Origin: a virus
Lineage: Duplodnaviria > Caudoviricetes
Virus record (IMG/VR): IMGVR_UViG_3300029318_000028
Span: 1-37,117 of that record
Reading direction: 5' to 3' (one strand)
DNA length: 37,117 nucleotides
Shown here one piece after another: positions 6,660 to 36,954 of the stretch. The notes below the pieces were generated by a model, which saw only the letters and a list, made by a program, of their open reading frames with translations, searched no databases and was not told the origin of the DNA. Every line of letters starts with the position of its first letter. Positions within the stretch are counted from its first letter, which is position 1. A program made the translations under genes and the position numbers.

Positions 6660-7109
6660 ATGGCTAGTGTAAAAGGTGCAAACATAACCAACATGGACAG
6701 CACACCAGCTGTCAATGTATCATCAGAAAATGCGGGAGGTAAAATCAGAGTATTTCACGATACTTATGAAGCATCCTCTTTAGCTTCTGGTTCTGATATC
6801 ACTATCGCAAGAATACCAGCAAATGCCACAATTCACGATGTAGTCGTAAAATGTGATGCATTAGGTTCTGGTGTTACTCTTAAAGTCGGTGATTCTAGTG
6901 ATGATGATAGATTTATTACTGTTGTCGGAACTTGGAACGTAGCTGGACAATCTCAGTCTATGTTAGCGGGTTCTTCTACTGGTGCGCCAGTACCAGCAGT
7001 AACTGGTCTAGGCTATAGAACTACAGCATCCACAGATGTTCTAATTACTACTGGCGGTGCATCCGCTACTGGAACAATCTTTGCATGGGTAATGTACTCT
7101 GTAGAGTAA
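6660..7109 (+). CDS. capsid decoration/minor capsid protein (putative)
   Basis: 149 aa, beta-rich, Gly/Ser/Thr-rich; right after the capsid gene; SD AGGAG. Confidence 0.65.
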   Translation: MASVKGANITNMDSTPAVNVSSENAGGKIRVFHDTYEASSLASGSDITIARIPANATIHDVVVKCDALGSGVTLKVGDSSDDDRFITVVGTWNVAGQSQSMLAGSSTGAPVPAVTGLGYRTTASTDVLITTGGASATGTIFAWVMYSVE

Positions 7110-8454: not shown

Positions 8455-10715
8455 TGCCAAGACAAACTGTTGCTTATACTAATTTTACAGCTGGTCAATT
8501 ATCACCTAGATTAGACGGAAGAACAGATCTTACAAAATATTATAATGGTGCAAAAACATTAAATAATTTTACAATACAGCCACATGGAGGAGCTAGTCGT
8601 AGACCAGGCACAAGATTTATACACGAAGTTAAAGATAGCTCTAATGCAGCCAGGCTAATACCTTTTGAGTTTTCTACAGTACAAACCTATGTTTTAGAAT
8701 TAGGAAATCAATACATACGTTTTTTTAAAGACAAAGGAATTATCACTGAGTCTAATGTGTCAATATCGGGTATCACCAAAGCAAATCCAGCAGTTGTAAC
8801 TGCAACAGGACATGGTTATAACAATGGCGATCATGTTATTATTACTTCAGTTAGTGGGATGGTGGAAGTCAATGGTAAAACTTTTATTGTCGCTAACAAA
8901 ACCACCAACACATTTGAGCTTACAGATGTTGATGGGAACAATGTCAATTCTAGTAGTTTTACTACCTACACTTCTGGTGGTGTTGTTAATAGAATATATC
9001 AAATTACTTCCCCTTACGCAGCTGCCGATCTAAGTGCTATCAAATTTGCACAATCTGCTGATATTATGTATCTCGTACATCCAGATTACAGTGTCCGAAA
9101 ACTCACTAGGACTGGTCATACAAGTTGGTCTTTAACAGAAGTAGATTTTACTAATGGTGTTTATCTACCAGACAATGCAACCACAACAACATTAAATCCA
9201 TCTCATCATACTGTAGGCACAGGAAGAACAGTTGTTGCATCTGCAACCACAGGAATAAATGGAGGATCTGGTTTTCAATCAACAGATGTTGGTAGATTAT
9301 TACGATTTGGATCTGGTCATGGAAAGATAACAGCAGTCGCTGATACTCTTAATTTTACTATGGAAATTTTAGTAGATATGGGATCTGCTACAGCATCAAC
9401 AGATTTTGCTTTAGGTTCTTTTTCTGACACAACAGGACATCCATCTTGTGTTACTTTTTTTGAACAAAGATTAGTTTTTGCATCTACTACAGATGAACCT
9501 CAAACATTATTTTTCTCCAGGGTAAATAATTACGAAGATTTTGAAGATGATAGAAATGGCACAGTTACAGATTTATCTGCGATGACATATACGATTGCTT
9601 CTAATAGAGTTAATACGATTAGATATTTATCCGCACAAAGATCTTTGATAGCGGGTACTACGGGTGGTGAATTTGTTGTATCTGCATCGGGTACGACTCA
9701 GCCAATTACACCAACCAATATACAAATTCAAAGACAAACATCCTATGGAACAGCTAATGTAGATGCTATCCAGGTAGCGAATGTTACGATGTTTTTACAG
9801 AGAGCTAAAAGAAAAATTAGAGAACTAACCTATAGTTTTGACTTTGACTCTTATGTAGCTCCCGATATGACGATCCTGGCAGAGAATATTACAGAGTCTG
9901 GTGTTAAAGAATTATCTTATCAACAAGAACCAGAAAGTATTATCTGGGGAACAAGAGAAGATGGTAAGTTAATTGGTCTAACATATCAACGAGCAGAGGA
10001 TGTAGTCGGATGGCATATTCATGAAGTAGGTGGTTCTTTTGGTTCAGATAGTTTTGCTCATGTAGAAAATATTGCCACTATACCTGGAGATGCAGATGAA
10101 GATGATTTATACATGGTAGTAAAAAGAACTATTAATGGATCTACAAGAAGATATGTCGAATATTTAACAAACTATGATTATGGAGATAGTATTACAGATG
10201 CTTTCTTTGTTGATAGTGGTTTAGCTTATAATGGATCTGCTACAACAAGCATATCTGGATTAGATCATTTAGAAGGACAAACTGTATCTATCCTGGCTAA
10301 TGGTTCAACACATCCAGATAAAACAGTATCTAATGGAGCTGTTACCTTAGATAGAAGCTCTACCAAAGTACAAATAGGATTAGCTTATACCAGCTTATTA
10401 CAGACAATGAGAATAGAAGCGGGAGCTGCAGAGGGTGTAGCTCAAGGTCAAACAAAACGTATACACGAAGTTACAATAAGATTACTAAATTCTGTCGGTG
10501 TTGAAATAGGATCAGATTTAACCAATATGGAAAGAATACCATTTAGAAGTTCAGCAGATGCGATGGACACAGCAATAGCTCCATTTAGTGGAGATAAACA
10601 AGTAGAATTTAGAGGAGATTTTGAAACTGATGGATTTATCTATGTAAGGCAAACGCAGCCTTTACCAATAAATATTATTGGTATATATCCAAGAGTTACA
10701 ACAAATGAAGGGTAA
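8454..10715 (+). CDS. tail tubular protein B (nozzle, T7 gp12-like)
   Basis: NFTAG.LSP....R.D, GG..RRPG, RLIPFEFS, P..VTFFEQRL.F, GL.HLEG.TV, Q.QPLP motifs. Confidence 0.92.
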   Translation: MPRQTVAYTNFTAGQLSPRLDGRTDLTKYYNGAKTLNNFTIQPHGGASRRPGTRFIHEVKDSSNAARLIPFEFSTVQTYVLELGNQYIRFFKDKGIITESNVSISGITKANPAVVTATGHGYNNGDHVIITSVSGMVEVNGKTFIVANKTTNTFELTDVDGNNVNSSSFTTYTSGGVVNRIYQITSPYAAADLSAIKFAQSADIMYLVHPDYSVRKLTRTGHTSWSLTEVDFTNGVYLPDNATTTTLNPSHHTVGTGRTVVASATTGINGGSGFQSTDVGRLLRFGSGHGKITAVADTLNFTMEILVDMGSATASTDFALGSFSDTTGHPSCVTFFEQRLVFASTTDEPQTLFFSRVNNYEDFEDDRNGTVTDLSAMTYTIASNRVNTIRYLSAQRSLIAGTTGGEFVVSASGTTQPITPTNIQIQRQTSYGTANVDAIQVANVTMFLQRAKRKIRELTYSFDFDSYVAPDMTILAENITESGVKELSYQQEPESIIWGTREDGKLIGLTYQRAEDVVGWHIHEVGGSFGSDSFAHVENIATIPGDADEDDLYMVVKRTINGSTRRYVEYLTNYDYGDSITDAFFVDSGLAYNGSATTSISGLDHLEGQTVSILANGSTHPDKTVSNGAVTLDRSSTKVQIGLAYTSLLQTMRIEAGAAEGVAQGQTKRIHEVTIRLLNSVGVEIGSDLTNMERIPFRSSADAMDTAIAPFSGDKQVEFRGDFETDGFIYVRQTQPLPINIIGIYPRVTTNEG

Positions 10716-11172
10716 TTTAAATATCATTCCCTTCAAGACAGAACATGGTTTGACAATGACAAGAGGTATTATGAATGATCCAGCAGTAAAAATAGATAAA
10801 GCCTGGGAAAGTCATTTACATAACCTGGAACAACCTGGTCAAGCCTTCACTGCTGTCTATAATAATCAATACATCGTATCGGGTGGTATTTGTCATATGT
10901 GGGATAAAGTTTATGAAGGATGGGTACTAGCATCCGATAAAATATGGGATCATCCGAGAGCTGCAGCAAGAGCTGTGAAAAAAGGATTAGAACAGTTGAT
11001 TGCAGAAAATAAAGTTGTACGATTGCAAACAGCTGTTAAAAAAGACTTTGAACTTGGTCATCGTTTTGCAAAATGGCTTGGCTTAGAGAATGAAGGCACA
11101 ATGAAAAAATATATTTCAAATAACGATCATATAAGATATGCAAGGATAATAAAATGGGATTACCAGCAGTAA
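10705..11172 (+). CDS. GNAT-fold protein (T7 gp13-position)
   Basis: GG.....W..V.EGW, RLQT.V..DF..G.RFA.WLG...EG.M pattern; ATG 10705 preferred over the track's 10678. Confidence 0.75.
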   Translation: MKGNLNIIPFKTEHGLTMTRGIMNDPAVKIDKAWESHLHNLEQPGQAFTAVYNNQYIVSGGICHMWDKVYEGWVLASDKIWDHPRAAARAVKKGLEQLIAENKVVRLQTAVKKDFELGHRFAKWLGLENEGTMKKYISNNDHIRYARIIKWDYQQ

Positions 11173-11654
11173 TAGCAGCATCAACCGCAGTCGGTGCAGT
11201 AGCCAGTATCCAGGCTGGACAAGCAGCAGAAGCAGCGGGTAAATATCAACAAACAATAGCTGAACAAAATGCCAAAACATATGAACAAAAAGCAGAAAGA
11301 TCTGTTGAAATTGGTGAATACAATGTCAAAAGATTTAATAAAGATTTTGAAAAAACATTTGCTAGTGTTGAAAGAGCCTATGCTTTTTCTGGTGTAGATC
11401 CATCCAGGGGTACACCATTAGCAGTTATGGAAGATTATTTAACAGAAGCAGAAATAGAAAGAGCTAACATTAGATATAACTCATCTATTGAAGCAAACGA
11501 TTATAGAGAAGCAGCTGTGATATCCAGGATGGAAGGTAGTTTAGCCAGATACCAGGGTAGACAATTACGAACTGCATCATATTTCAAAGCTGGACAAACA
11601 TTACTTGGAGGAGCATCTGATATTATGTCAATAAACAGATATGCTGGATTATAA
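11154..11654 (+). CDS. internal virion protein (gp14-like)
   Basis: Ala/Gly-rich hydrophobic N-terminus, SGV....GTPL motif, position after nozzle and GNAT genes. Confidence 0.8.
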   Translation: MGLPAVIAASTAVGAVASIQAGQAAEAAGKYQQTIAEQNAKTYEQKAERSVEIGEYNVKRFNKDFEKTFASVERAYAFSGVDPSRGTPLAVMEDYLTEAEIERANIRYNSSIEANDYREAAVISRMEGSLARYQGRQLRTASYFKAGQTLLGGASDIMSINRYAGL

Positions 11655-13999
11655 TGGTACAGATACCAGAGTTTAAAGCTAAGACAGCTCCGACATCCCA
11701 GACGGGTACAAGACCAAGACCAGTTCCCGATATTACAGCAGCAGCTGCAGCTCCATTTGAAGCAGCTGCAGATTTAGCTGCAGATGTCCAGGCAGTGTCT
11801 ACAAGATTTTATGAAGCACAAAAATCATTACAAAGAAAAACAGAAGCAACAAAACAAATAGATTATTTAATTAAGGGTGATGAAAATAATCCTGGATTAA
11901 ATAAATTGATGTTTGATGCACAAAACAATCCAGATACAAACACTGCGTTACCACAATTTGAACAAGGATTTACAACACACAAGAATAATATTTTATCTGG
12001 AATAGAAGATAATGTAGTCAAGCAGCTTGTAGAACAAAAAGCAGATGAGTTATACACAACAAACTATGTTGATGTTCAAGCATCAGTTTGGAAAAACATT
12101 AGAGAAGATTCTATCAAAACATTAGAAGAAAATTTAAACAGAGAGTTTAATTCATACATAACAGCTGGTGGTAATACTGCAAAGAAAAATACAGCTATGA
12201 ATAGTATTGAGGGATATGTAGAAGATGCAGCTAACGATGGAATACTAAGTGTTAGTAAAGAAGAATATTTACAAACACAAATGCAAAATTTACACACACT
12301 AGAAGCAGAATTATTGGCATCAGAAAATCCAGAGGTATTTTTAAAAAATTATGAAGATGGATATTACAATGAAAAAGTAAGTCCAGAAAATTTAGTAACA
12401 TTAAAAAAACTTGCAGACACAAGAAAAGCTACAAATGATAAACAAACAGTGGCTGGTATCAAAACAGAAGGAACTGCGATTGCAGCACAAATTAGAGATT
12501 TTACTAGCATTACAAATGCGGACTATTTTAATATTAATACTTTTAATACTTTATTAGCTGCAGCTGTGCAGAATGATGCAGCACAAAGAGCAGTCGGATT
12601 ACCTGGATTACAAAAAGAGATTGAACAATTAGCAATCATTGAACAAAATTTTAACATAATACAAAAAGCTAAAAAAGCTAATCCCGATGAAGTAAAAGAA
12701 ACTTTGGATCAAGTAAGATTGGAAAACCAAAGATTATCAAAAGATCCAAATGCAGATCCATTCCAACAAAAATTATTAATTCAATTAGAAACAAGCCTGG
12801 AGAGCATTCATTCTACAATGCTAACAGAAATGCCTAACAATTTATTAAACATGGCAGAGGGTTTCGATGGTGAATTAAAATTTACAGAGTTAGATTTATT
12901 AGAACAAGATGCACAAACATTTTTACTAGCATCTGGTAATAGAAGAAAACAAGCATCAGAGGTAGCAGATTTTTATAATGTTCCATTACAGTTATTAAAA
13001 GAAGAAGAAAAAGAAAATATAAAACAAGTTTTAACAACAGGAAGCTATGATGAGAAAGTTACTGTTTTAACTAACTTAGCGATCCTGGGTAGAGAAGATT
13101 TAAAAAGTGTTTTTGTTCAATTAGGTATGGAAAAAGATGCATCCTATTACACTCATGTTGGATTAATGATTTTGGCAAATGGTGGTCGAATGGATAATAC
13201 AACCATGTCTATTTTAAAAGGTGCTGAGTTAATGGGTACAGACAGAGCTAAAGATCTTTATACCATTATTGGTGAGCATATGGATGCAGCTACAATACCA
13301 TTATTGCTAGTTGATTATATGCCTACATCTATGGTGAATAATTTAGAAAATTTAATGCCACAAATAGATCAATCAGCTCAGTTAATTTTTTTACACAAGT
13401 TAAGTTTGAACCAAAACAATATTTTAGGATCGAGTAGTGAAAAAGAAATACAAAAATTATATGAGCAATCTATACAAGAAGCTGCTGGTATGATGAAAAA
13501 AGGTGATGAATTTTATGGTGGTTTTCAAGATTTTAATGGTATGAAAATTTTATTACCACAAAATATGCCTAATAGTGAACCTTATCAATTTACAAAAAAT
13601 AGCTCTAATTATCCTACAGTACAAGAAATGTTAGAAGATGCATTAACACCAGAGCTATTAGAAAAAGCATTTACATATGAATTTGAAACTTACTCGACTG
13701 GACAAAATACAACCATTACTGAAACAAAAAAAGTTTTGCCTGTTACTGAAATAGATGGTGAATTATCTGTAACAGATTTATTTGAGAAAGAAGGTAAGAA
13801 TATATTTTTTGATGATGATGGTAAATTTTTAGATAGTATATTTTTAGAAACAGCTGACGATGGTATGTATTACATAGGGTTAGGAGATCCAAATTCTGGT
13901 ACTGCAGAATATTTTAGAGATGCAGATGGTAAAGAAATTTTGTTTAACTTAAAAAAAATTATACCAGATTTATTAGTATTGGCGATGCAGAATGAATAA
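11654..13999 (+). CDS. internal virion protein (gp15-like)
   Basis: 781 aa, helical, M..IP N-terminus; synteny within the ejectosome block. Confidence 0.7.
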   Translation: MVQIPEFKAKTAPTSQTGTRPRPVPDITAAAAAPFEAAADLAADVQAVSTRFYEAQKSLQRKTEATKQIDYLIKGDENNPGLNKLMFDAQNNPDTNTALPQFEQGFTTHKNNILSGIEDNVVKQLVEQKADELYTTNYVDVQASVWKNIREDSIKTLEENLNREFNSYITAGGNTAKKNTAMNSIEGYVEDAANDGILSVSKEEYLQTQMQNLHTLEAELLASENPEVFLKNYEDGYYNEKVSPENLVTLKKLADTRKATNDKQTVAGIKTEGTAIAAQIRDFTSITNADYFNINTFNTLLAAAVQNDAAQRAVGLPGLQKEIEQLAIIEQNFNIIQKAKKANPDEVKETLDQVRLENQRLSKDPNADPFQQKLLIQLETSLESIHSTMLTEMPNNLLNMAEGFDGELKFTELDLLEQDAQTFLLASGNRRKQASEVADFYNVPLQLLKEEEKENIKQVLTTGSYDEKVTVLTNLAILGREDLKSVFVQLGMEKDASYYTHVGLMILANGGRMDNTTMSILKGAELMGTDRAKDLYTIIGEHMDAATIPLLLVDYMPTSMVNNLENLMPQIDQSAQLIFLHKLSLNQNNILGSSSEKEIQKLYEQSIQEAAGMMKKGDEFYGGFQDFNGMKILLPQNMPNSEPYQFTKNSSNYPTVQEMLEDALTPELLEKAFTYEFETYSTGQNTTITETKKVLPVTEIDGELSVTDLFEKEGKNIFFDDDGKFLDSIFLETADDGMYYIGLGDPNSGTAEYFRDADGKEILFNLKKIIPDLLVLAMQNE

Positions 14000-14528
14000 T
14001 ATTGATTGGGATTTTATACATGAATTAGAAGGTGCTGGTCTTAGCCAGGGATACCAACCAACAAATAATTCTGGTGTAACAATAGCTAGTGGTTTTGATT
14101 TAAAAGAAAAAGATGAAGCATTTTGCCAGGCTATAGGAATAGATCAAAGAGTTATTAATAAATTAAAACCATATTTTGGTTTACATGGAGAACAAGCTAA
14201 AACATTTGCAAATTCATTAGTTTTAGAAAAAGAAGAAGTAGATCACATTGACGAATGCTCCAGGCATTTTTATGCAAAAGATCTACAAAGACAATATGAG
14301 TTATATGATCCTGTAGTTCCTTTTGAGGAGCTAGATCAAGGTCAAGCCACAGTTTTAATCTCTGTTGGTTTTCAATATGGTAGTTATAGAAGAACTCCAT
14401 CGTTTATAAAATATGCAACCGATGGAAACTGGGATGCAGTCTATGAAGAACTCCAGGAGTTTGGAGATGCTTTTCCTACCAGGAGAAAAAAAGAAGCAGA
14501 ATATTTAAAAAACTATGGCACAATTTAA
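13992..14528 (+). CDS. pesticin C-terminal-like muramidase
   Basis: IDWDFI.ELEG, SGVTIASGFDL, TV..SV.FQYG and F.D.FPTRR..EA.YL match the pesticin/T4-lysozyme-like family. Confidence 0.85.
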   Translation: MNNIDWDFIHELEGAGLSQGYQPTNNSGVTIASGFDLKEKDEAFCQAIGIDQRVINKLKPYFGLHGEQAKTFANSLVLEKEEVDHIDECSRHFYAKDLQRQYELYDPVVPFEELDQGQATVLISVGFQYGSYRRTPSFIKYATDGNWDAVYEELQEFGDAFPTRRKKEAEYLKNYGTI

Positions 14529-17500
14529 GATATCAGAAACAAACAAAACATCTTTTTTTACAGATAATGTTCACGATAGACCAAACAGAAATAATCAATT
14601 TGGTGATAAAACTGTCAAAGCTAGACCAAGACTAGACGATGAAATAGCAAAAACTCAATACGATTTACAATTAAATTTTAGAAACTCTAACTCTGAAATG
14701 ATTAATATCATGGAAGATATGGATAAAGTTACACAAGATTTTTTTAGTTTAACTGGCATTTATTACAACATGAATGATTATGTAGCAGAAGTAGACGAAC
14801 CATTTATGTATTCAAACAATATAGAGTTCGATCCAGGAGGATCTTATGTTGGGGAATATTTTGGTAGTGCTACATCTATGAACCATGTCCGAGCAAAACA
14901 ACAATACATTAATCGTAAAATTGAAGAATACTTTGAAAAAAATCCAGAACAAAGAGGTAGTAAATTAGGTGGTTTTAGAGATTATTCATACTATGAAAAT
15001 GCCAGGAGAAACGAATTAGCTGAATTAGAACAAGAAGCTGCTATTGGTCAAAAGTATAATGATGGCAGTACATTGTCTGCATCTATTTTTGGTGGTGGTT
15101 TAGCTATATTTCAAGATCCATTAATTATAGAAAGTTTACCAGTTATTGCTGCATCTGGTGGAAGTTTTGCAAGTATAATGGGTATTGTTAGAATGGCAGC
15201 TTCAGAAGCTGTTATATCGGGTACATATGAAGCTGTCATACAATCCAAAGTTGTTAGTTATAATCAAAGGCTAGGATCTGATTATGGATGGAAAGAGGCA
15301 TCTGCAGCTATAGCTCTTGCAGCTGGAGGTGGTGCATTAGCAACCGCTGCATTAGGCGGAACAATAAAAACTTTTTTTAATGGTTATTCTAAAATACTAA
15401 GAGCTACACCAAATGGTAAAGCAAAAGCAATAGCACAAGAAATAGATAAATTAATAGATGAAGCTCCTATCCTGGATGATGCTTATGCTACTAAGGTGAT
15501 GGATTATATTAATAAAAATATACAAACATTTAACACTGCAGAAAAAGCACAATTTTTAGAAACTATTATAGAAAATACACCAAGAGGAGTTACACCTACA
15601 GTTAAGACAGCACAACAAGTTTTAGAAGGTGATGAATTGATTGATACAACCAATCCGTTAGAAAGCACACCAAGAGGTAAACAAGAACATATTGAAAGAG
15701 TGCAAAATGCTGGTGAAGGATTGTTATCTGGTGAAAATAAACTGAATGACGAAACCAGAACACCAATAGATTATACAAAAAATTTTGACAACAATTCTAA
15801 TGTTATTAGAGAAGTAAGATTAGATCCAGATGAGATAGAAGTAGAGCCAGATGTATTTCAATTTAAAACAGAAGAAATAGATCCGCAAACAGGAGTATCA
15901 CCAAAACTTAAAGGTATAACAGAATGGGATCAAGATGCTGCTAATGTTGTGATGGTGTTTGAATATGCTGATGGTAGAAAAGTAATAGCAGATGGTCATC
16001 AAAGACTAGCTCTTGCAAAAAGAATAAAAGCGATGGGTAAACAAAAACCTTACCTATTAGCAACCATACGCAGAGAAGTTGATGGTCATACACCAGAAGA
16101 AACAATGGTAGCTGCGATGATGTTAAACGTACACCAGGGTACAGCTAGTGCTGCTGATGTGGCAAAGATCTTAAAAATCAAACCAGATTATGTCCAGGCT
16201 ATTAAGGGTAAAATATCACCTAGATCTGTATTATGGGAAAATGCCAGGGGTTTATCAAAGCTCAGTCCAGAAGCCTGGCAATATTATTTAAACAATAATG
16301 TACCAGATAAGATAGCTGCTATTGTTGGAGATCTTGTTGAAGATCCAGATTTACATATCCAGGTTATAGATTTTATTACAAAAAATAATTTTGCTAATGA
16401 ACAACAAATAAGATTAGCTATCCAGGATGTTATTAGCCAGGGTGTATCTACTAGAGAAGTCCAGGATCTTTTTGGTACACAAACAATCAAAGAATTATTA
16501 ATTAAAGAAAGAGCAGAGATCTTAGACAAAGCAATCAAAGAATTAAAGAAAGATAAAAATATTGCTGGATTTTTAGTTAATAATGAAGCAAAAATATTAA
16601 AAAAAGGTAAGAACAAACTAGATAGTGATTTTAATAAAAAAGCCTTAGAAGAAAGTGCTTTGGCTATAGAGAAGATTATTAAACTTGCTAATATGAAAGG
16701 AGCAATATCAGATGAGCTTAACATCGCAGCCAAACTTTTCAAAGATGGGAATAAGCAAGAAGCAGTCCAATCTTTTAAAGAAGCTATCACCACAGCAATT
16801 AAAAATGGCGATCTTGACAGGGTTACACCAGGCAGAGTTGAACGCACTGCGTTATCTGAAGGATATACACAAGAGCAACCAAATATCCCTAAAGAAACAG
16901 AAGCCAACAAAAACCTAAAAAATTCAGAGAATGTTCACGATGGTAAACAACAATACGATCAAGAATATGGATCTGTAGAAAACACGATTAATGACATTCG
17001 TGTTGCTAACAAATTAGATACACCAAAAGAACCAGCCAAAGTAGAAATACAAAGTAAAACATTAGCTGAAATATCAGAATTACCAGATGATGTATTAAAG
17101 AACCAGGCTGATGAATTAATAGATCATCCAGAAATAGTACGTCTAAGAGAGTTATCTCTTAGTAAAGAAACTACTATTAAAAGAGCTGGTGGTACTTTTG
17201 ACGAAAATTGGCAACAACAAAGAGGATGGCAGCAAGTTGTTGATGATTTGTATGGAGAAGGTGCAGCAGTACAAAACAAAGAACTTACTGTATTTATTGG
17301 ATTACCAGCATCTGGTAAATCAACACTAGCTGCAGCTCAACAAAAAGAATTAGGTGCTATTATTATTGACTCAGACTTTGTTAAAGAACATCCTAATTTT
17401 GCAAAAGATTACGATAAAGGTAATGGAGCTGGTGCTTTACACGAAGAAAGTAAAGCTATACAAGAGCTTATTATTGATAGAGCTTTTAATAATGGTGATA

Positions 17501-18027
17501 ATATTATAGTTCCCATTGTTGGAAGTGGTGGAAAATCTATTGAAAAATATATTGATTTAGCAAAGGCATATGGATATTCTTTAGTTGTCAAATATGTAGA
17601 GGTAGATGAAGCTACCGCTATTACCAGAAATGTAAAAAGAATTTATAACGATGGCAGATTTGTAGATCCTCAATATATTAAGGATGCCTATAAAGGTGCT
17701 TTACAAAATTACACAAAAGGAAAGGAGAAAGCCGATGGCTACGAAAAAATTAACCTTGAAGGAGCTAGACCAGTTACGAAAGAAATCGGTGGAAAGGCAC
17801 AAACAAATGGAGGAAGCAGACAACCAGATGGTGGACAGGCTTATTCAAAAAGCGAAACAGAAGAAATTGAAGGAATCTTCGCTAAATTAGATCCACAATA
17901 CCAGGTTATGACTGGTGTTGATGCTGATGGTAATGTTGTTATGCAATCAGCTAATGATGTTTTACTAGATCTAAATAAAGATAAAAAAGCAATAGACTTT
18001 TTAGAAGGATGTCCAGGTCTTAAATGA
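14515..18027 (+). CDS. large internal virion protein with ParB/Srx-like domain and C-terminal zeta-toxin-like P-loop kinase
   Basis: Hydrophobic Gly/Ala segments near aa 185-280; FQFK...GV...L.G...WD...VIADGHQRL (about 15810-16150); VFIGLPASGKST, IIDSD, LHEES and R......GRFV (about 17270-17720). Confidence 0.8.
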   Translation: MAQFKISETNKTSFFTDNVHDRPNRNNQFGDKTVKARPRLDDEIAKTQYDLQLNFRNSNSEMINIMEDMDKVTQDFFSLTGIYYNMNDYVAEVDEPFMYSNNIEFDPGGSYVGEYFGSATSMNHVRAKQQYINRKIEEYFEKNPEQRGSKLGGFRDYSYYENARRNELAELEQEAAIGQKYNDGSTLSASIFGGGLAIFQDPLIIESLPVIAASGGSFASIMGIVRMAASEAVISGTYEAVIQSKVVSYNQRLGSDYGWKEASAAIALAAGGGALATAALGGTIKTFFNGYSKILRATPNGKAKAIAQEIDKLIDEAPILDDAYATKVMDYINKNIQTFNTAEKAQFLETIIENTPRGVTPTVKTAQQVLEGDELIDTTNPLESTPRGKQEHIERVQNAGEGLLSGENKLNDETRTPIDYTKNFDNNSNVIREVRLDPDEIEVEPDVFQFKTEEIDPQTGVSPKLKGITEWDQDAANVVMVFEYADGRKVIADGHQRLALAKRIKAMGKQKPYLLATIRREVDGHTPEETMVAAMMLNVHQGTASAADVAKILKIKPDYVQAIKGKISPRSVLWENARGLSKLSPEAWQYYLNNNVPDKIAAIVGDLVEDPDLHIQVIDFITKNNFANEQQIRLAIQDVISQGVSTREVQDLFGTQTIKELLIKERAEILDKAIKELKKDKNIAGFLVNNEAKILKKGKNKLDSDFNKKALEESALAIEKIIKLANMKGAISDELNIAAKLFKDGNKQEAVQSFKEAITTAIKNGDLDRVTPGRVERTALSEGYTQEQPNIPKETEANKNLKNSENVHDGKQQYDQEYGSVENTINDIRVANKLDTPKEPAKVEIQSKTLAEISELPDDVLKNQADELIDHPEIVRLRELSLSKETTIKRAGGTFDENWQQQRGWQQVVDDLYGEGAAVQNKELTVFIGLPASGKSTLAAAQQKELGAIIIDSDFVKEHPNFAKDYDKGNGAGALHEESKAIQELIIDRAFNNGDNIIVPIVGSGGKSIEKYIDLAKAYGYSLVVKYVEVDEATAITRNVKRIYNDGRFVDPQYIKDAYKGALQNYTKGKEKADGYEKINLEGARPVTKEIGGKAQTNGGSRQPDGGQAYSKSETEEIEGIFAKLDPQYQVMTGVDADGNVVMQSANDVLLDLNKDKKAIDFLEGCPGLK
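16712..16918 (+). CDS. putative nested (+1 frame) small protein
   Basis: AAAGGAG at 16696-16702, 9 nt before ATG; host frame shifts to atypical C-ending codons over this span. Confidence 0.4.
   Translation: MSLTSQPNFSKMGISKKQSNLLKKLSPQQLKMAILTGLHQAELNALRYLKDIHKSNQISLKKQKPTKT
17735..17890 (+). CDS. putative nested (+1 frame) 51-aa helical protein, candidate antitoxin
   Basis: AAAGGAG at 17721-17727, 7 nt before ATG; MATKKLTLKELDQLRKKSVERHKQMEEADNQMVDRLIQKAKQKKLKESSLN; host frame is low-complexity Gly-rich here. Confidence 0.6.
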   Translation: MATKKLTLKELDQLRKKSVERHKQMEEADNQMVDRLIQKAKQKKLKESSLN

Positions 18028-20626: not shown

Positions 20627-22003
20627 ATGACAATATCTAGCACAACAATTAAAAATTCGTACTCTGGTAATGGATCTACGACAGCTTTTGCTTTTTCATT
20701 CTATATTATTGCTGAAACTGATTTACAAGTAATCATTAGAGCAGCAAATGGTACAGAAACAGTCAAAAGTTTAACAACACATTATACAGTATCTGGTGTT
20801 CAAAATAATAGTGGTGGTACTGTAACGATGGGTTCAGCTCCAGCATCTGGAGAAACCTTAGTTATTCGCAGAAATACATCAAAGACACAATCTACTGATT
20901 ATGTAGCTAATGATCCTTTTCCAGCAGAAACACATGAAGCAGCTCTTGATAAAGGTATTTTAGTATCTCAAGAAATATCAGAAACTGTAGACAGATCTAT
21001 TAAACTATCCAGAACAAATACGATGACTTCTACAGAATTTACTGTAGGAGCTACAGACAGAGCTAATAAAATATTAGCTTTTGACAGCTCTGGTGAAATA
21101 GCTGTTACCCAGGAAATAGGTACATTTAGAGGTAATTGGTCTGCATCAACTTCATATGCACAAAGAGATTTAGTAAAAGACACATCAACAAATAATATCT
21201 TTCTGGCTAATACAGCTCATACGTCTAGTGGCTCACAACCATTGACAACAAATACAGATTCCGCTAAATGGGATCTGATTGTAGATGCGGCAACAGCAAC
21301 GACCTCCGCAACAAATGCAGCTTCCTCCGCAACCGCTGCTGCCTCATCTGCCACAGCTGCCGCAAGTTCTGCATCAGCTGCTGCTACATCAGAGTCCAAT
21401 GCAAATACCTCAAAAACTAATGCAGCTACATCAGCTTCTACAGCATCTACCCAGGCAACCAATGCGGCTTCATCTGCAACGTCTGCTGCGAGTTCAGCAA
21501 CTACAGCTACTACAAAAGCAAGTGAAGCTAGTACCAGTGCTACGAATGCAGCAACTTCTGCAACTTCTGCATCAAGCTCTGCTACGACTGCAACAACCAA
21601 AGCTAGTGAAGCGGCAACATCTGCTACTAATGCTGCTTCTTCAGCATCGACTGCATCTGGTCATGCCACGACAGCCACGACTAAGGCTTCTGAAGCTGCT
21701 ACATCAGCAACTAATGCTGCTACCAGTGCAACTGCTGCTGACACTGCAAAGACAGCTGCACAAGCTGCACAAACAGCTGCTGAAGCTGCGGCTGATAATT
21801 TTGATGATACATACCTGGGAGCTAAAGCATCTGATCCGACAGTAGATAATGACGGAGATGCACTAACTGCTGGAGATTTATATTTCAATACAAGCAGTAA
21901 TGAGTTAAAAGTTTATAACGGATCATCCTGGCAAGTAGCTGCCTCTGATGTATCTACACTAGCAACAAAAGGATTTGCGATAGCATTGGCTGTTGCTCTT
22001 TAA
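20627..22003 (+). CDS. tail fibre protein (T7 gp17-like N-terminal anchor, Ala/Ser/Thr coiled stalk)
   Basis: YSGNGSTT.F.F.F, FPAETHE.ALD; long Ala/Ser/Thr repeat; FDD.YLG.K...PT.DNDG.AL..G.LYF; ends AIALAVAL. Confidence 0.88.
   Translation: MTISSTTIKNSYSGNGSTTAFAFSFYIIAETDLQVIIRAANGTETVKSLTTHYTVSGVQNNSGGTVTMGSAPASGETLVIRRNTSKTQSTDYVANDPFPAETHEAALDKGILVSQEISETVDRSIKLSRTNTMTSTEFTVGATDRANKILAFDSSGEIAVTQEIGTFRGNWSASTSYAQRDLVKDTSTNNIFLANTAHTSSGSQPLTTNTDSAKWDLIVDAATATTSATNAASSATAAASSATAAASSASAAATSESNANTSKTNAATSASTASTQATNAASSATSAASSATTATTKASEASTSATNAATSATSASSSATTATTKASEAATSATNAASSASTASGHATTATTKASEAATSATNAATSATAADTAKTAAQAAQTAAEAAADNFDDTYLGAKASDPTVDNDGDALTAGDLYFNTSSNELKVYNGSSWQVAASDVSTLATKGFAIALAVAL
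21497..21748 (+). repeat. three 84-nt (28-aa) coding repeats
   Basis: ATTATTKASEA begins at 21497, 21581 and 21665. Confidence 0.85.
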
Positions 22004-32176: not shown

Positions 32177-33055
32177 TTATCGACCATAAAAATTTTTTAC
32201 CTCATCTAGTTCTGCATCAGAGTATCCAAAGTAATTTATATTTTTAAAATCTGGCTGGATAAAATTTTTAGCTACATATTCCGCATCATCAGATAGCTTA
32301 ATTAAATTTTGCCTAGTAAGAGCTGTACGATAAAAATCTTTCATACAGCTCTCCCTAGTTTCAGCGGTTAATGCGGAGGACTCGTCTGTGCTGAAAACTT
32401 TGTATTCATAGGGTGTTGCATAAATTAAATAGCCTGGCTTTTTTGTTGCTGCTGCATAGAAAGACACTTGGTCTACATGAGCTGCTTCTGGTTCTGCAGC
32501 TACTGCAACTTTTCCATAATTGTATGTGCCATCTTTCCTGGGTTTACCAGCTCTCTTTTGCCATTTAGTTTTTGCTTCTATAAAAAATTCTTTTGTTTCT
32601 AAATCTGTTCTACCAATCCAGGGTATTTCAATTCCATCCATTTGTAGATCTACATAATGTTCTGCATTAATCGTAGTATGTTTTTTTATATCCAGATCTT
32701 TTAATGCCTGGATATAATTTTTTACAACAGCTGGTATTGCTTCCAGGTTTACTTCCCACTGTTTCATTTCTTTTTCATCATCAATAAAAAAACCTTTTTG
32801 TTTTTGATAATCTTTTATTGCTAGATCTACAGACTGATCTTCTGATGTATCTTTTAAAACATAACTATCCCAGCCTATTTGTGCAGATATACCCGCCTTC
32901 ATTTTTGCACTAGGTTTCTTTTTTCTTCTCCATTCCTGGTCTTTAAAAACATATTCATACCACCAGGCACACAATGGTTTATTTTTTTGTGTCGGTGATA
33001 AATGGTCTAGTCCATGTTTTAACCAGTAATCCGCAACATATGATATTTGATCCAT
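32177..33055 (-). CDS. PD-(D/E)XK exonuclease (RecB/Cas4-like)
   Basis: HLSP, AE, G.TDL, IEAKT and Q..FY motifs; upstream of the annealing protein. Confidence 0.85.
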   Translation of the reverse strand: MDQISYVADYWLKHGLDHLSPTQKNKPLCAWWYEYVFKDQEWRRKKKPSAKMKAGISAQIGWDSYVLKDTSEDQSVDLAIKDYQKQKGFFIDDEKEMKQWEVNLEAIPAVVKNYIQALKDLDIKKHTTINAEHYVDLQMDGIEIPWIGRTDLETKEFFIEAKTKWQKRAGKPRKDGTYNYGKVAVAAEPEAAHVDQVSFYAAATKKPGYLIYATPYEYKVFSTDESSALTAETRESCMKDFYRTALTRQNLIKLSDDAEYVAKNFIQPDFKNINYFGYSDAELDEVKNFYGR

Positions 33056-36052: not shown

Positions 36053-36353
36053 TCCCGATCTTTTAATTTTTAATTGGAAAGATCCCCAGGAAGATGAAAC
36101 AGGCTGGAAAGAATTAAAGGTTAGTTCTATCGGTCTGGCTGATTGTTTCTCTGTGGGTTGGATTATTGACGAAACAGACGACTATTTTGTATTAGCAGCG
36201 GATTTGATTATCAGCAAAGGGAAGATAACAGATACAGGAAGGCGGCAGAGCATATACAAAAGCAGATTAAATATACACAAAAGGATTGATTTTAACATTT
36301 ATGATACAAAAATGGAAGCTGCTAAAACTGGTAAATTCAAGAAAAGAACTTAA
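36033..36353 (+). CDS. hypothetical protein
   Basis: W.D.....GW, C.SVGW......VL..D pattern. Confidence 0.7.
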   Translation: MISSKTNPDLLIFNWKDPQEDETGWKELKVSSIGLADCFSVGWIIDETDDYFVLAADLIISKGKITDTGRRQSIYKSRLNIHKRIDFNIYDTKMEAAKTGKFKKRT

Positions 36354-36954
36354 CGATGCCGCTAGGCGGGTTATGTTTTTTTTATTAGATAGAGAAAATA
36401 ATAAAACCAGAAAACTATATCCTAGTCATGCCAGGTTGGCTGAAGATACTGGATTGCATTCCAGGAGTGTAACCAGGGGTATAAATTGTTTAATTAAATA
36501 TGGTTTTTTACGCAAGGTACGCAGAGGAGCTACTGGCAGAGCTACTGAATATGAGATTAATTACAATGTAACAGTAGACACATTTGTCCAAAGTAGTAGA
36601 CAGATTTGTCCAAAACAGGCGACAGATTTGTCTGACCAATTAACTAATGAATTAACTAATAAATTAACTAAGATTGATAAGACAGATTTGTCTAGTGGTA
36701 TGAAAAAGAACGAAGTAAATAATATATTAAAAAATATAGCAAAGATAACTAATCCAAATTATAGAGCTGTCGTTGATGGTGCTAAAAAGAAATATTTAGA
36801 TCCAGAAGCAATTAGACAGCGATATGTACAAAAGACTGGTAATTACCAGGAGTCATTTAAATGGAAAGAACTGTATTTAAATCCTAAGACTAGCAAAGCT
36901 GCATGGGATTATGCAGTGCATTTAGGTATTGTAAAAGAATTTAAGAAGAAATAA
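36286..36954 (+). CDS. winged-HTH replication initiator (lambda O-like)
   Basis: YPS..RLA.DTG...RSV.R.I..L...G.L and internal iterons; start may be ATG 36301. Confidence 0.8.
   Translation: MILTFMIQKWKLLKLVNSRKELNDAARRVMFFLLDRENNKTRKLYPSHARLAEDTGLHSRSVTRGINCLIKYGFLRKVRRGATGRATEYEINYNVTVDTFVQSSRQICPKQATDLSDQLTNELTNKLTKIDKTDLSSGMKKNEVNNILKNIAKITNPNYRAVVDGAKKKYLDPEAIRQRYVQKTGNYQESFKWKELYLNPKTSKAAWDYAVHLGIVKEFKKK
36577..36692. repeat. putative replication origin: iterons plus AT-rich repeats
   Basis: GACA(C/G)ATTTGTC at 36577, 36599, 36621 and 36681; AATTAACTAA at 36638, 36650 and 36662. Confidence 0.85.

Follow-up and report, generated by a model that had tools for sequence, protein, structure and literature searches.

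Candidate partner genes nested in the +1 frame of a predicted internal virion protein with ParB/Noc-like and zeta-like kinase domains

The window analyzed here (37,117 nucleotides, positions 1 to 37,117 of the viral record IMGVR_UViG_3300029318_000028) comes from an HTVC010P-like marine podovirus, a relative of SAR11 phages. It encodes a 1,170-aa protein, referred to below as the carrier, whose gene contains two small open reading frames, n1 and n2, in the +1 frame. As a preliminary description of this DNA had stated, these start at 16712 and 17735 behind identical AAAGGAG strings. The features of the locus are as follows.

10678..13999, + strand: remaining internal-virion block, proteins of 164, 166, and 781 aa (phrog_308 and phrog_418, "internal virion protein")
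13992..14528, + strand: upstream neighbor, pesticin-type lysozyme (PF16754, E = 1e-27)
14515..18027, + strand: carrier gene, 1,170 aa; predicted to be an internal, ejected virion protein in which an exchangeable enzyme cassette precedes a conserved C-terminal tail
15073..15354, + strand: hydrophobic Gly/Ala-rich segments (aa ~187 to 280), a possible membrane-insertion region
15796..16824, + strand: ParB/Noc-like module (aa ~428 to 770), nucleotide-binding domain (NBD) with DGHQR, HTH-like helices, and a helical extension
16696..16702, + strand: Shine-Dalgarno (SD)-like AAAGGAG of n1, 9 nt ahead of its ATG; AAGG(AG) is kept in homologues
16712..16918, + strand: n1, nested in the +1 frame, 68 aa, containing an amphipathic helix conserved as LSxxQLxxAIxxG; putative ParB-module partner
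17074..17772, + strand: zeta-like P-loop kinase (aa ~854 to 1086) with K935, D954, R1042, and R1048 intact; family motif GAGAxHxES
17721..17727, + strand: SD-like AAAGGAG of n2, 7 nt ahead of its ATG
17735..17890, + strand: n2, nested in the +1 frame, 51 aa, with a helical sequence pattern; putative antitoxin against the zeta-like kinase
17890..18027, + strand: conserved C-terminal tail ending in CxG, also found in the cassette-less relatives P0010, P0012, P0017, and P0018
18024..20573, + strand: downstream neighbor, 849-aa virion structural protein (phrog_684, E = 2e-139), overlapping the carrier stop

The carrier contains the motifs IADGHQRL, GLPASGKST, IDSD, and HEES noted in it previously. 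Judging from gene order, which places it between internal-virion (phrog_308, phrog_418) and virion-structural genes, it is likely an internal virion protein that is packaged and injected with the DNA, in agreement with its earlier assignment to an ejected-protein block. The same structural-protein neighbor follows the carrier in 10 of the 11 loci inspected. The membrane-like segments described earlier do correspond to hydrophobic Gly/Ala-rich stretches, but their Kyte-Doolittle 19-mer peaks at aa 187, 207, and 262 (1.43, 1.57, and 1.64, respectively) are only borderline for transmembrane segments. No MuF domain was found in the carrier with Pfam or PHROGs, its aa 1 to 430 matched only unnamed viral clusters in the ESM Atlas, and the 781-aa protein of the internal-virion block had no match in PHROGs. 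In DNA runs from three studies, the region is covered without any main-contig indel across n1 or n2; the one RNA run gave two 151-base contigs at depth 2, with no sign of transcription or translation. ParB-like and zeta-like domains are combined in a single virion-region polypeptide, to which relatives add ART-PolyVal, LPD23, GNAT, and RelA domains.

The ParB-like domain with a helical extension, as previously proposed, is recovered in a predicted structure (pLDDT 83) that matches Noc (7nfu; E = 1.5e-4, TM 0.54 of the target) as well as PadC and pNOB8 ParB (Z = 8.1), all with modest scores. Its NBD, with a G-x-x-R motif and a conserved Asn, is followed by an HTH domain. A PDB sequence search with this module returned nothing, and Pfam ddrB-ParB was not matched at E = 0.01; the fold instead matches ParB/Noc. 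The module as modeled resembles a ParB/Noc-like clamp and is not clearly a toxin. Further, a branch of 23 homologues retains DGHQR and lacks n1, so that the module can exist without this partner, which counts against n1 being an inhibitor; among the 20 of these homologues examined, none showed an SD-led substitute. The carriers of the cultured phages 45A6 and SI2 have no n1 match either. Both the clamp-like model and the n1-less branch speak against the earlier view of the ParB module as a toxin with n1 as its partner.

For the kinase, the earlier assignment is confirmed by a match to Pfam Zeta_toxin (aa 925 to 1072, E = 7e-16) and by a structural model (pLDDT 93) that matches zeta (1gvn) with E = 1.3e-8 and TM 0.66. 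The equivalents of zeta K46, D67, R158, and R171 are all intact, and K935 and D954 are invariant in all 23 zeta-like kinases compared. However, the UDP-GlcNAc-binding motif GTxR is absent, with IVGS in its place, and the positions of zeta E116, T118, and R120 are occupied by P, V, and S. Among 40 clusters, the T118 position holds V or I in 35 and Thr in 5, and the R120 position holds Arg in 1. Because the GTxR motif is missing, the substrate is probably not UDP-GlcNAc, and the target proposed in the preliminary description, UDP-GlcNAc with a block of MurA, is no longer favored. Zeta and PezT are the best matches in both sequence and fold, with a polynucleotide kinase close behind by profile (4e-10 versus 1.5e-10). 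In the available part of PMC3062530, a Thr118-to-Val change abolished PezT toxicity; given the Val at this position, toxicity of the carrier kinase is not assured.

Sequence comparisons indicate that n1 and n2 behave as real genes. When codons were redrawn with the carrier protein fixed, the probability of no stop was 0.0014 for n1 and 0.028 for n2; among 2,000 simulations, 0.2% produced one or more SD-led +1 ORFs of at least 50 aa and none produced two, and no such ORF was found in the 18 other late genes tested. Synonymous change, which the earlier description had suggested examining, is reduced to 0.06 in the n1 core versus 0.25 to 0.32 in the flanks and to 0.20 in n2 versus 0.32, but the suppression is significant in only two of six pairs for each ORF. 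This limited significance counts against reading the two products as inhibitors (see below), as do the partly forced co-inheritance of n1 and n2 with the carrier, which they physically overlap, and the finding that neither peptide resembles solved antitoxins. Neither had a meaningful match in Pfam or PHROGs, and PDB sequence searches returned nothing.

Among complete homologues, n1 is present in 68 of 91 (GC content 0.28 to 0.69), with every profile match in the +1 frame. The Mameliella sp. MMSF_3455 element (L230) is among those that carry n1. Its helix pattern is kept at 30 to 40% carrier identity, and n1 also occurs in free-standing proteins. An antisense ORF of 208 aa (16284 to 16910) was rejected as a shadow frame, as its length is only 136 to 149 aa in L067 and L072 and 41 aa in L070 and L009.

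Of 82 complete zeta domains, carriers without a ParB match included, 81 have an n2-type ORF with the same start position, and an SD of at least 4 nt precedes 71 of these 81 ORFs, which bears out the suggested co-occurrence with zeta. By cluster (<70% identity), the ORF is found in 38 of 39; the five control windows give 3 to 10 of 40. The +1 ORF is also present in 55 of an additional 57 zeta carriers; the available sequence of 20 of the 57 shows no ParB-module match. A wobble-T probability was discarded because selection on ATG biases it. Upstream of 17735, the n2 frame stays open back to an ATG at 17684, which was rejected as the start since in close relatives a +1 stop immediately precedes the equivalent of 17735. 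Across clades, n2 is barely alignable (mean column identity 32%), which counts against the inhibitor reading; its profile, a weak one of 51 positions, found neither epsilon nor PezA chains at E = 10.

The cassettes (zeta, RelA-like, or none) switch among near-identical ParB backgrounds, and ART is found on the same scaffold. In RelA/SpoT-like relatives, n2 is replaced by a small antisense ORF, located behind GGAGGT or AGGAGG in 13 of 17 RelA-like carriers. The profile of this ORF matched no zeta-type carrier, and its family had no meaningful match in Pfam or PHROGs. Chance often suffices to keep these antisense frames open (P = 0.13 to 0.89), another point against the inhibitor reading. GNAT, ART, and second-ParB inserts in relatives have no SD-led nested ORF, so that the claim of a partner for every enzyme domain fails there. 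Where zeta is C-terminal, the +1 ORF extends beyond the carrier stop in L159 and L218 (with SD) and L209 (without SD), whereas L164 has a separate 58-aa gene downstream; these carriers appear to display an un-absorbed toxin-immunity layout, as in MuF pairs. The earlier idea of absorbed toxin-antitoxin cassettes gains from this layout, from the exchangeability of the cassettes, and from the tracking of zeta by n2 across unrelated carriers.

Taken together, we consider it probable (roughly 0.6) that the carrier is an injected core protein with an exchangeable cassette, that toxin-immunity cassettes were absorbed into it by read-through, and that n1 and n2 are candidate inhibitors silencing the ParB-like and zeta-like domains in the virion-building cell. 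Ordinary overlapping toxin-immunity pairs would have been inserted in frame ahead of the essential C-terminal tail, so that carrier translation continues through the immunity gene. The late mRNA would yield the carrier, plus n1 and n2 from the internal SD sites; n2 would bind the kinase and n1 the ParB/Noc-like module, leaving assembly undisturbed, and the carrier would be packaged without its partners and ejected along with the DNA. In the new host, the kinase substrate may be a metabolite or signal resembling a nucleotide (canonical phosphorylation of UDP-GlcNAc being improbable), and its phosphorylation would stall metabolism or weaken defence; the ParB module, anchored in the membrane, could meanwhile grip or shield the incoming DNA.

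An unlikely but serious alternative takes n1 and n2 for real proteins that serve as chaperones in folding or packaging, as co-packaged structural partners, or as activators of the domains next to them. Such roles would suit short helical peptides whose expression accompanies that of the structural genes, and they would fit the structural-partner-like conservation of n1 over long distances and a ParB module that models as a clamp and not a toxin; set against this are a partner that changes, even in strand, with the enzyme cassette, the layout of the C-terminal zeta carriers, and the hypervariability of n2. We find it somewhat harder still to accept a canonical UDP-GlcNAc 3'-kinase that blocks MurA, with n2 as the epsilon equivalent and the partners also excluding superinfecting kin. 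The best sequence and fold matches and the four intact catalytic residues agree with it, and cell-wall weakening by zeta domains of polyvalent and MuF proteins is proposed in the available text of Iyer et al. (2017; PMC5512222), but the P/V/S substitutions, their prevalence among the clusters, and the nearly equal polynucleotide kinase profile all argue otherwise. Nothing was found in support of the exclusion of superinfecting kin, which the preliminary description had also considered, and no integrase was found.

Very improbable is programmed +1 frameshifting that would give shorter carrier isoforms with alternative C termini. Both frames do start at domain ends, and an upstream SD-like sequence can stimulate +1 shifts, as in prfB; however, the conserved ATG lies at initiation spacing and arises from four different carrier codons (D, N, Y, or H), a +1 stop lies no more than 12 codons upstream of the n2-type ATG in 68 of 81 cases, antisense partners are impossible as frameshift products, and n1 is known in free-standing proteins. 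We give almost no credence to the nested ORFs being by-products of carrier amino acid constraints, even though the window shows no excess of AAAGGAG (8 versus 7.05 expected) and K-G/K-E and D-G/D-E codon pairs readily yield such strings, given the codon-shuffle nulls, the synonymous suppression, the control windows, and the helix pattern conserved in divergent carriers.

Returning to absorbed toxin-immunity cassettes, the closest parallel, judging from the available parts of PMC5576092 and PMC11699363, is with MuF toxins and their immunity proteins (Apk2, Bxa/Bsi): a virion-associated carrier with a variable toxin module (RelA-like, ART), a small cognate ORF directly after the toxin domain, and proposed delivery with phage DNA. 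By contrast, our carrier lies in a podovirus internal-virion block and not in the head module, lacks a MuF domain, has two partner genes, and comes with no integrase seen. The candidate toxin domain does not end the protein but precedes a conserved tail, so that its small ORF comes to lie within the carrier gene, overprinted in the +1 or antisense frame, unlike the downstream MuF ORF. Polyvalent proteins, as far as covered by the accessible text of PMC5512222, are likewise multidomain virion-region proteins with ParB/Srx, zeta-like, RelA/SpoT, GNAT, and ART domains, and carrier relatives match ART-PolyVal and LPD23; however, "overlap" has no match in the main text, the passages covered do not describe nested partner genes, and the carrier has a ParB/Noc-like NBD plus HTH with no Pfam ddrB-ParB match. 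With epsilon/zeta and PezAT (1gvn, 3q8x, 2p5t; available parts of PMC3062530 and PMC6362051), the carrier shares the kinase fold, the Walker A Lys, the catalytic Asp, two Arg residues, and a small helical candidate antitoxin. It differs in the missing GTxR, in the downstream nested position of n2 (their antitoxins are upstream), in the kinase being a virion-protein domain, and in the lack of epsilon/PezA similarity of n2 in the weak profile search.

The clamp formed by KorB is locked by its small partner KorA. The ParB/Noc/KorB CTP-dependent clamps (7nfu, 7bnr, 8qa9) show the same predicted order of NBD, HTH, and helical C terminus, with G-x-x-R and the conserved Asn; 8qa9 is, by its title, a KorB co-complex. 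The carrier module differs in its fusion to a hydrophobic virion domain, and the scores are modest (E = 1e-4, Z = 8). According to the part of 10.64898/2025.12.20.695498 at hand, the product of an internal out-of-frame ORF in Synechocystis Slr0489L/S was shown experimentally to bind and neutralize the toxic host-frame protein; that is a small chromosomal, non-phage membrane protein with one internal ORF and no enzyme cassettes, and homology is not expected. The same source covers lambda Rz/Rz1, where one gene lies in a different frame within a phage late gene and the two products work together, but as cooperating lysis subunits and not as enzyme and inhibitor. In the largely open-access main texts searched, no description turned up of partner genes nested within phage genes for virion or polyvalent proteins.

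If the cassette reading holds, the carrier with n1 and n2 offers a concrete answer to how enzyme-laden virion proteins can be made without crippling the producer cell, and the n1/n2 family would comprise conserved genes of abundant marine phages overlooked by single-frame annotation. The nested partners could serve as signposts to new toxin activities, including the zeta-like kinase subfamily with a noncanonical GTxR site, and lend themselves to toxicity/rescue testing in Escherichia coli. We see about even odds for a broader view, in which the absorption of cassettes with overprinted (+1 or antisense) immunity genes has turned ejected core proteins and polyvalent proteins into polymorphic arrays of effectors, and hosts or rival phages gather such peptides into poly-inhibitors that disarm injected enzymes. 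"Low-complexity linkers" would then be shadows of unannotated genes marking toxic domains. No viral locus was found in the genomic context of P0093. The candidate poly-inhibitor is P0086, a free-standing protein that joins a segment resembling an NTase partner, n1, and a segment resembling n2, scoring 16, 49, and 15 bits, respectively, versus at most 4.1 bits for the best of 200 shuffles. This combination speaks for the inhibitor reading; that P0086 is known from one sequence, located on a 1-kb contig, counts against it.

The 1,170-aa carrier protein consists of an N-terminal region whose hydrophobic segments are borderline, a ParB-like module, an exchangeable enzyme module (cassette), here a zeta-like kinase, and a conserved tail with CxG at its end. 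Its gene contains two nested frames.

14515-18027 (+), carrier
16712-16918 (+), n1, +1-frame ORF, 68 aa, at the end of the ParB-like module
17735-17890 (+), n2, +1-frame ORF, 51 aa, at the end of the kinase

The Shine-Dalgarno-like (SD) heptamer AAAGGAG alone is not rare (8 in the window versus 7.05 expected), unlike its combination with an open +1 frame. When codons were redrawn according to genome usage while the carrier protein was kept unchanged, the probability of an open frame was 0.0014 for n1 and 0.028 for n2; one SD-led +1 ORF of at least 50 aa appeared in 0.2% of 2,000 simulations, and two never did. Such ORFs were found in none of 18 other late genes. The window has two other alternative-frame ORFs, both lacking AGGAG.

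8812-9033, 73 aa, in a tail gene
21285-21845, 186 aa, in the tail-fibre gene (20627-22003)

Judged by its sequence record, n1 is a gene. A 41-sequence n1 profile matched 68 of 99 nonredundant carriers (from the first 142 loci and the window), in the +1 frame every time, a count that overstates independence because many rows are close kin. After exclusion of 8 truncated or broken rows, the 23 carriers without n1, out of 91, form one branch (SH-aLRT 99); all retain the ParB motif, which counts against n1 as a required partner. The n1 starts have AAGG/AGGAG-type SDs over GC contents of 0.28 to 0.69, the helix LSxxQLxxAIxxG is retained, and ~80 stops would be expected in this frame over 27 lineages, themselves chosen for having the ORF.

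The n2 frame likewise appears to be a gene, one tied to the kinase. Among 84 distinct zeta domains, 82 of them complete, a +1 ATG ORF of at least 40 aa starts 128 to 165 codons past Walker A in 81 of the 82, with an SD in 71 and a +1 stop no more than 12 codons upstream in 68. At <70% identity, the ORF is found in 38 of 39 clusters, versus 3 to 10 of 40 in five control windows. The ATG is formed from carrier Asp, Asn, Tyr, or His codons, and sequence conservation between clades is low. The zeta profile recovered 57 carriers, of which 55 have the ORF; 20 of the 57 have no ParB-module match in the available sequence, some of it 5′-truncated. In the synonymous-site check that the preliminary description proposed, change over six pairs was 0.11 in n1 and 0.06 in its core, versus 0.25 for the ParB module and 0.27 for the linker that follows; for n2, suppression was weaker (0.20 versus 0.32). 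Just two of six pairs were significant for each frame, with three more near p 0.06 for n1.

The module after the N-terminal region is modeled as ParB/Noc-like (pLDDT 83; matches to Noc, E 1.5e-4, and to PadC and pNOB8 ParB, Z 8.1). The kinase model (pLDDT 93) best matches zeta (TM 0.66), and the Walker A Lys, catalytic Asp, and both Arg are invariant in 23 of 23 sequences. The initial assignment as a canonical UDP-GlcNAc kinase is nevertheless unsupported, and the substrate is probably a different one: the UDP-GlcNAc-binding motif GTxR (PMC6362051) reads IVGS, its region being lined instead by the family motif GAGAxHxES, and in 35 of 40 clusters V or I occupies the Thr118 position; in PezT, a Thr-to-Val change abolishes toxicity (PMC3062530). 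Stand-alone Bacteroidota-named proteins of this HxES subfamily (P0037, P0042, and P0049) have 300 to 313 aa.

Cassettes in 17 aligned close homologs are zeta (10), RelA/SpoT-like (3), or none (4); more distant homologs have ART, GNAT, or a second ParB/Srx-like domain. In a quick ParB-module tree, cassette type changes between near-identical backgrounds, which at the sequence level is a polymorphic-toxin pattern. The second ParB/Srx-like domain (DGNSTY) precedes an NTase in L088, L095, L110, L123, and P0023; GNAT is additionally present in L102/L104, and ART-PolyVal is carried by L131/L133/L141/L063. No nested partner was seen with GNAT, ART, or second-ParB inserts, so the suggestion that each enzyme domain has one fails in relatives.

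RelA-like carriers have antisense ORFs of ~70 aa directly past the domain in 13 of 17 cases (SD GGAGGT/AGGAGG).

L028:7016-7225 (-)
L088:7790-7993 (-)
L124:6770-7015 (-)
10 more

One further carrier matches their profile; in the other three, another antisense frame lies ahead of the domain. Antisense openness alone is not significant in these carriers (P 0.13-0.89). The carrier's Ser/Thr-rich "linker" would be explained by this ORF family lying there. L231 and L234 are also listed with the family; in a second RelA-like cassette type (L075, L085, L018; P0009, P0011, P0013, P0019), the antisense frame that is conserved lies ahead of the domain, its SD weak or absent.

Where zeta is C-terminal, the +1 ORF extends beyond the carrier stop in L159 and L218 (and, doubtfully, without an SD, in L209); in L164, a separate 58-aa gene follows. 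This resembles MuF toxin-immunity pairs, with a small ORF overlapping or following the toxin domain (PMC5576092, PMC11699363), and is likely the pre-absorption state. An n1-profile search of 1.8 billion representatives gave 43 matches; P0086 is one of them, and in several others n1 is appended to the protein. Free-standing n1-motif proteins include P0086 (197 aa, 1,040-base contig), which joins an NTase-partner-like part, n1, and an n2-like part; P0093, n1 with a weak n2-like tail; and P0096/P0104/P0097/P0095/P0099 (P0104 from a Xanthobacteraceae MAG). These proteins, known from single short contigs, are possibly orphan or poly-immunity genes.

Beyond the observed frames, conservation, cassette exchange, and predicted folds, we infer that carrier and partners would be cotranslated late in infection, the partners inhibiting the enzyme-like domains in the producer cell; the carrier would be packaged without them and its domains become active after ejection. 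We give this overall model a probability of about 0.62. Inhibition of the kinase by n2 is rather probable; for n1 inhibiting or locking a DNA-gripping ParB-like module, the chances look even. Superinfection exclusion by the partners, raised earlier, found no support. Polyvalent virion proteins, MuF pairs, and one nested antidote are already known; in Synechocystis, an internal out-of-frame antidote was demonstrated experimentally (10.64898/2025.12.20.695498). In the literature searched, no account was found of cassette-specific partner genes overprinted, in either the +1 or an antisense frame, within phage core proteins; the word "overlap" is absent from the main text of Iyer 2017 (PMC5512222).

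The 37-kb record is near-complete, and marine DNA runs contain the virus. A SAR11-like host is suggested because its portal is 57 to 60% identical to those of HTVC010P-type pelagiphages; the carrier has no match in those cultured phages. The carrier gene comes after two genes that match PHROG "internal virion protein" families, one for a 781-aa protein with no match, and one for a pesticin-type lysozyme, and it overlaps a virion structural gene; from this gene order, the carrier would be ejected with phage DNA. Scanned window ORFs yielded no integrase and no DNA polymerase match.

356-916, MT-A70 family methyltransferase, immediately 5′ of the terminase large subunit
13992-14528, pesticin-type lysozyme as a stand-alone gene, within the internal-virion block
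32177-33055 (-), 292-aa protein, weak Cas4-like PHROG match (E 0.002)
36286-36954 (+), replication-initiator-like HTH protein

ParB-module relatives occur on 15 bacterial genome contigs, mostly from Alphaproteobacteria. A named isolate genome, Mameliella sp. MMSF_3455 (L230), has a ParB-module carrier and an n1 match (E 3.9e-7) around 6692-7050 and might serve as an experimental system.
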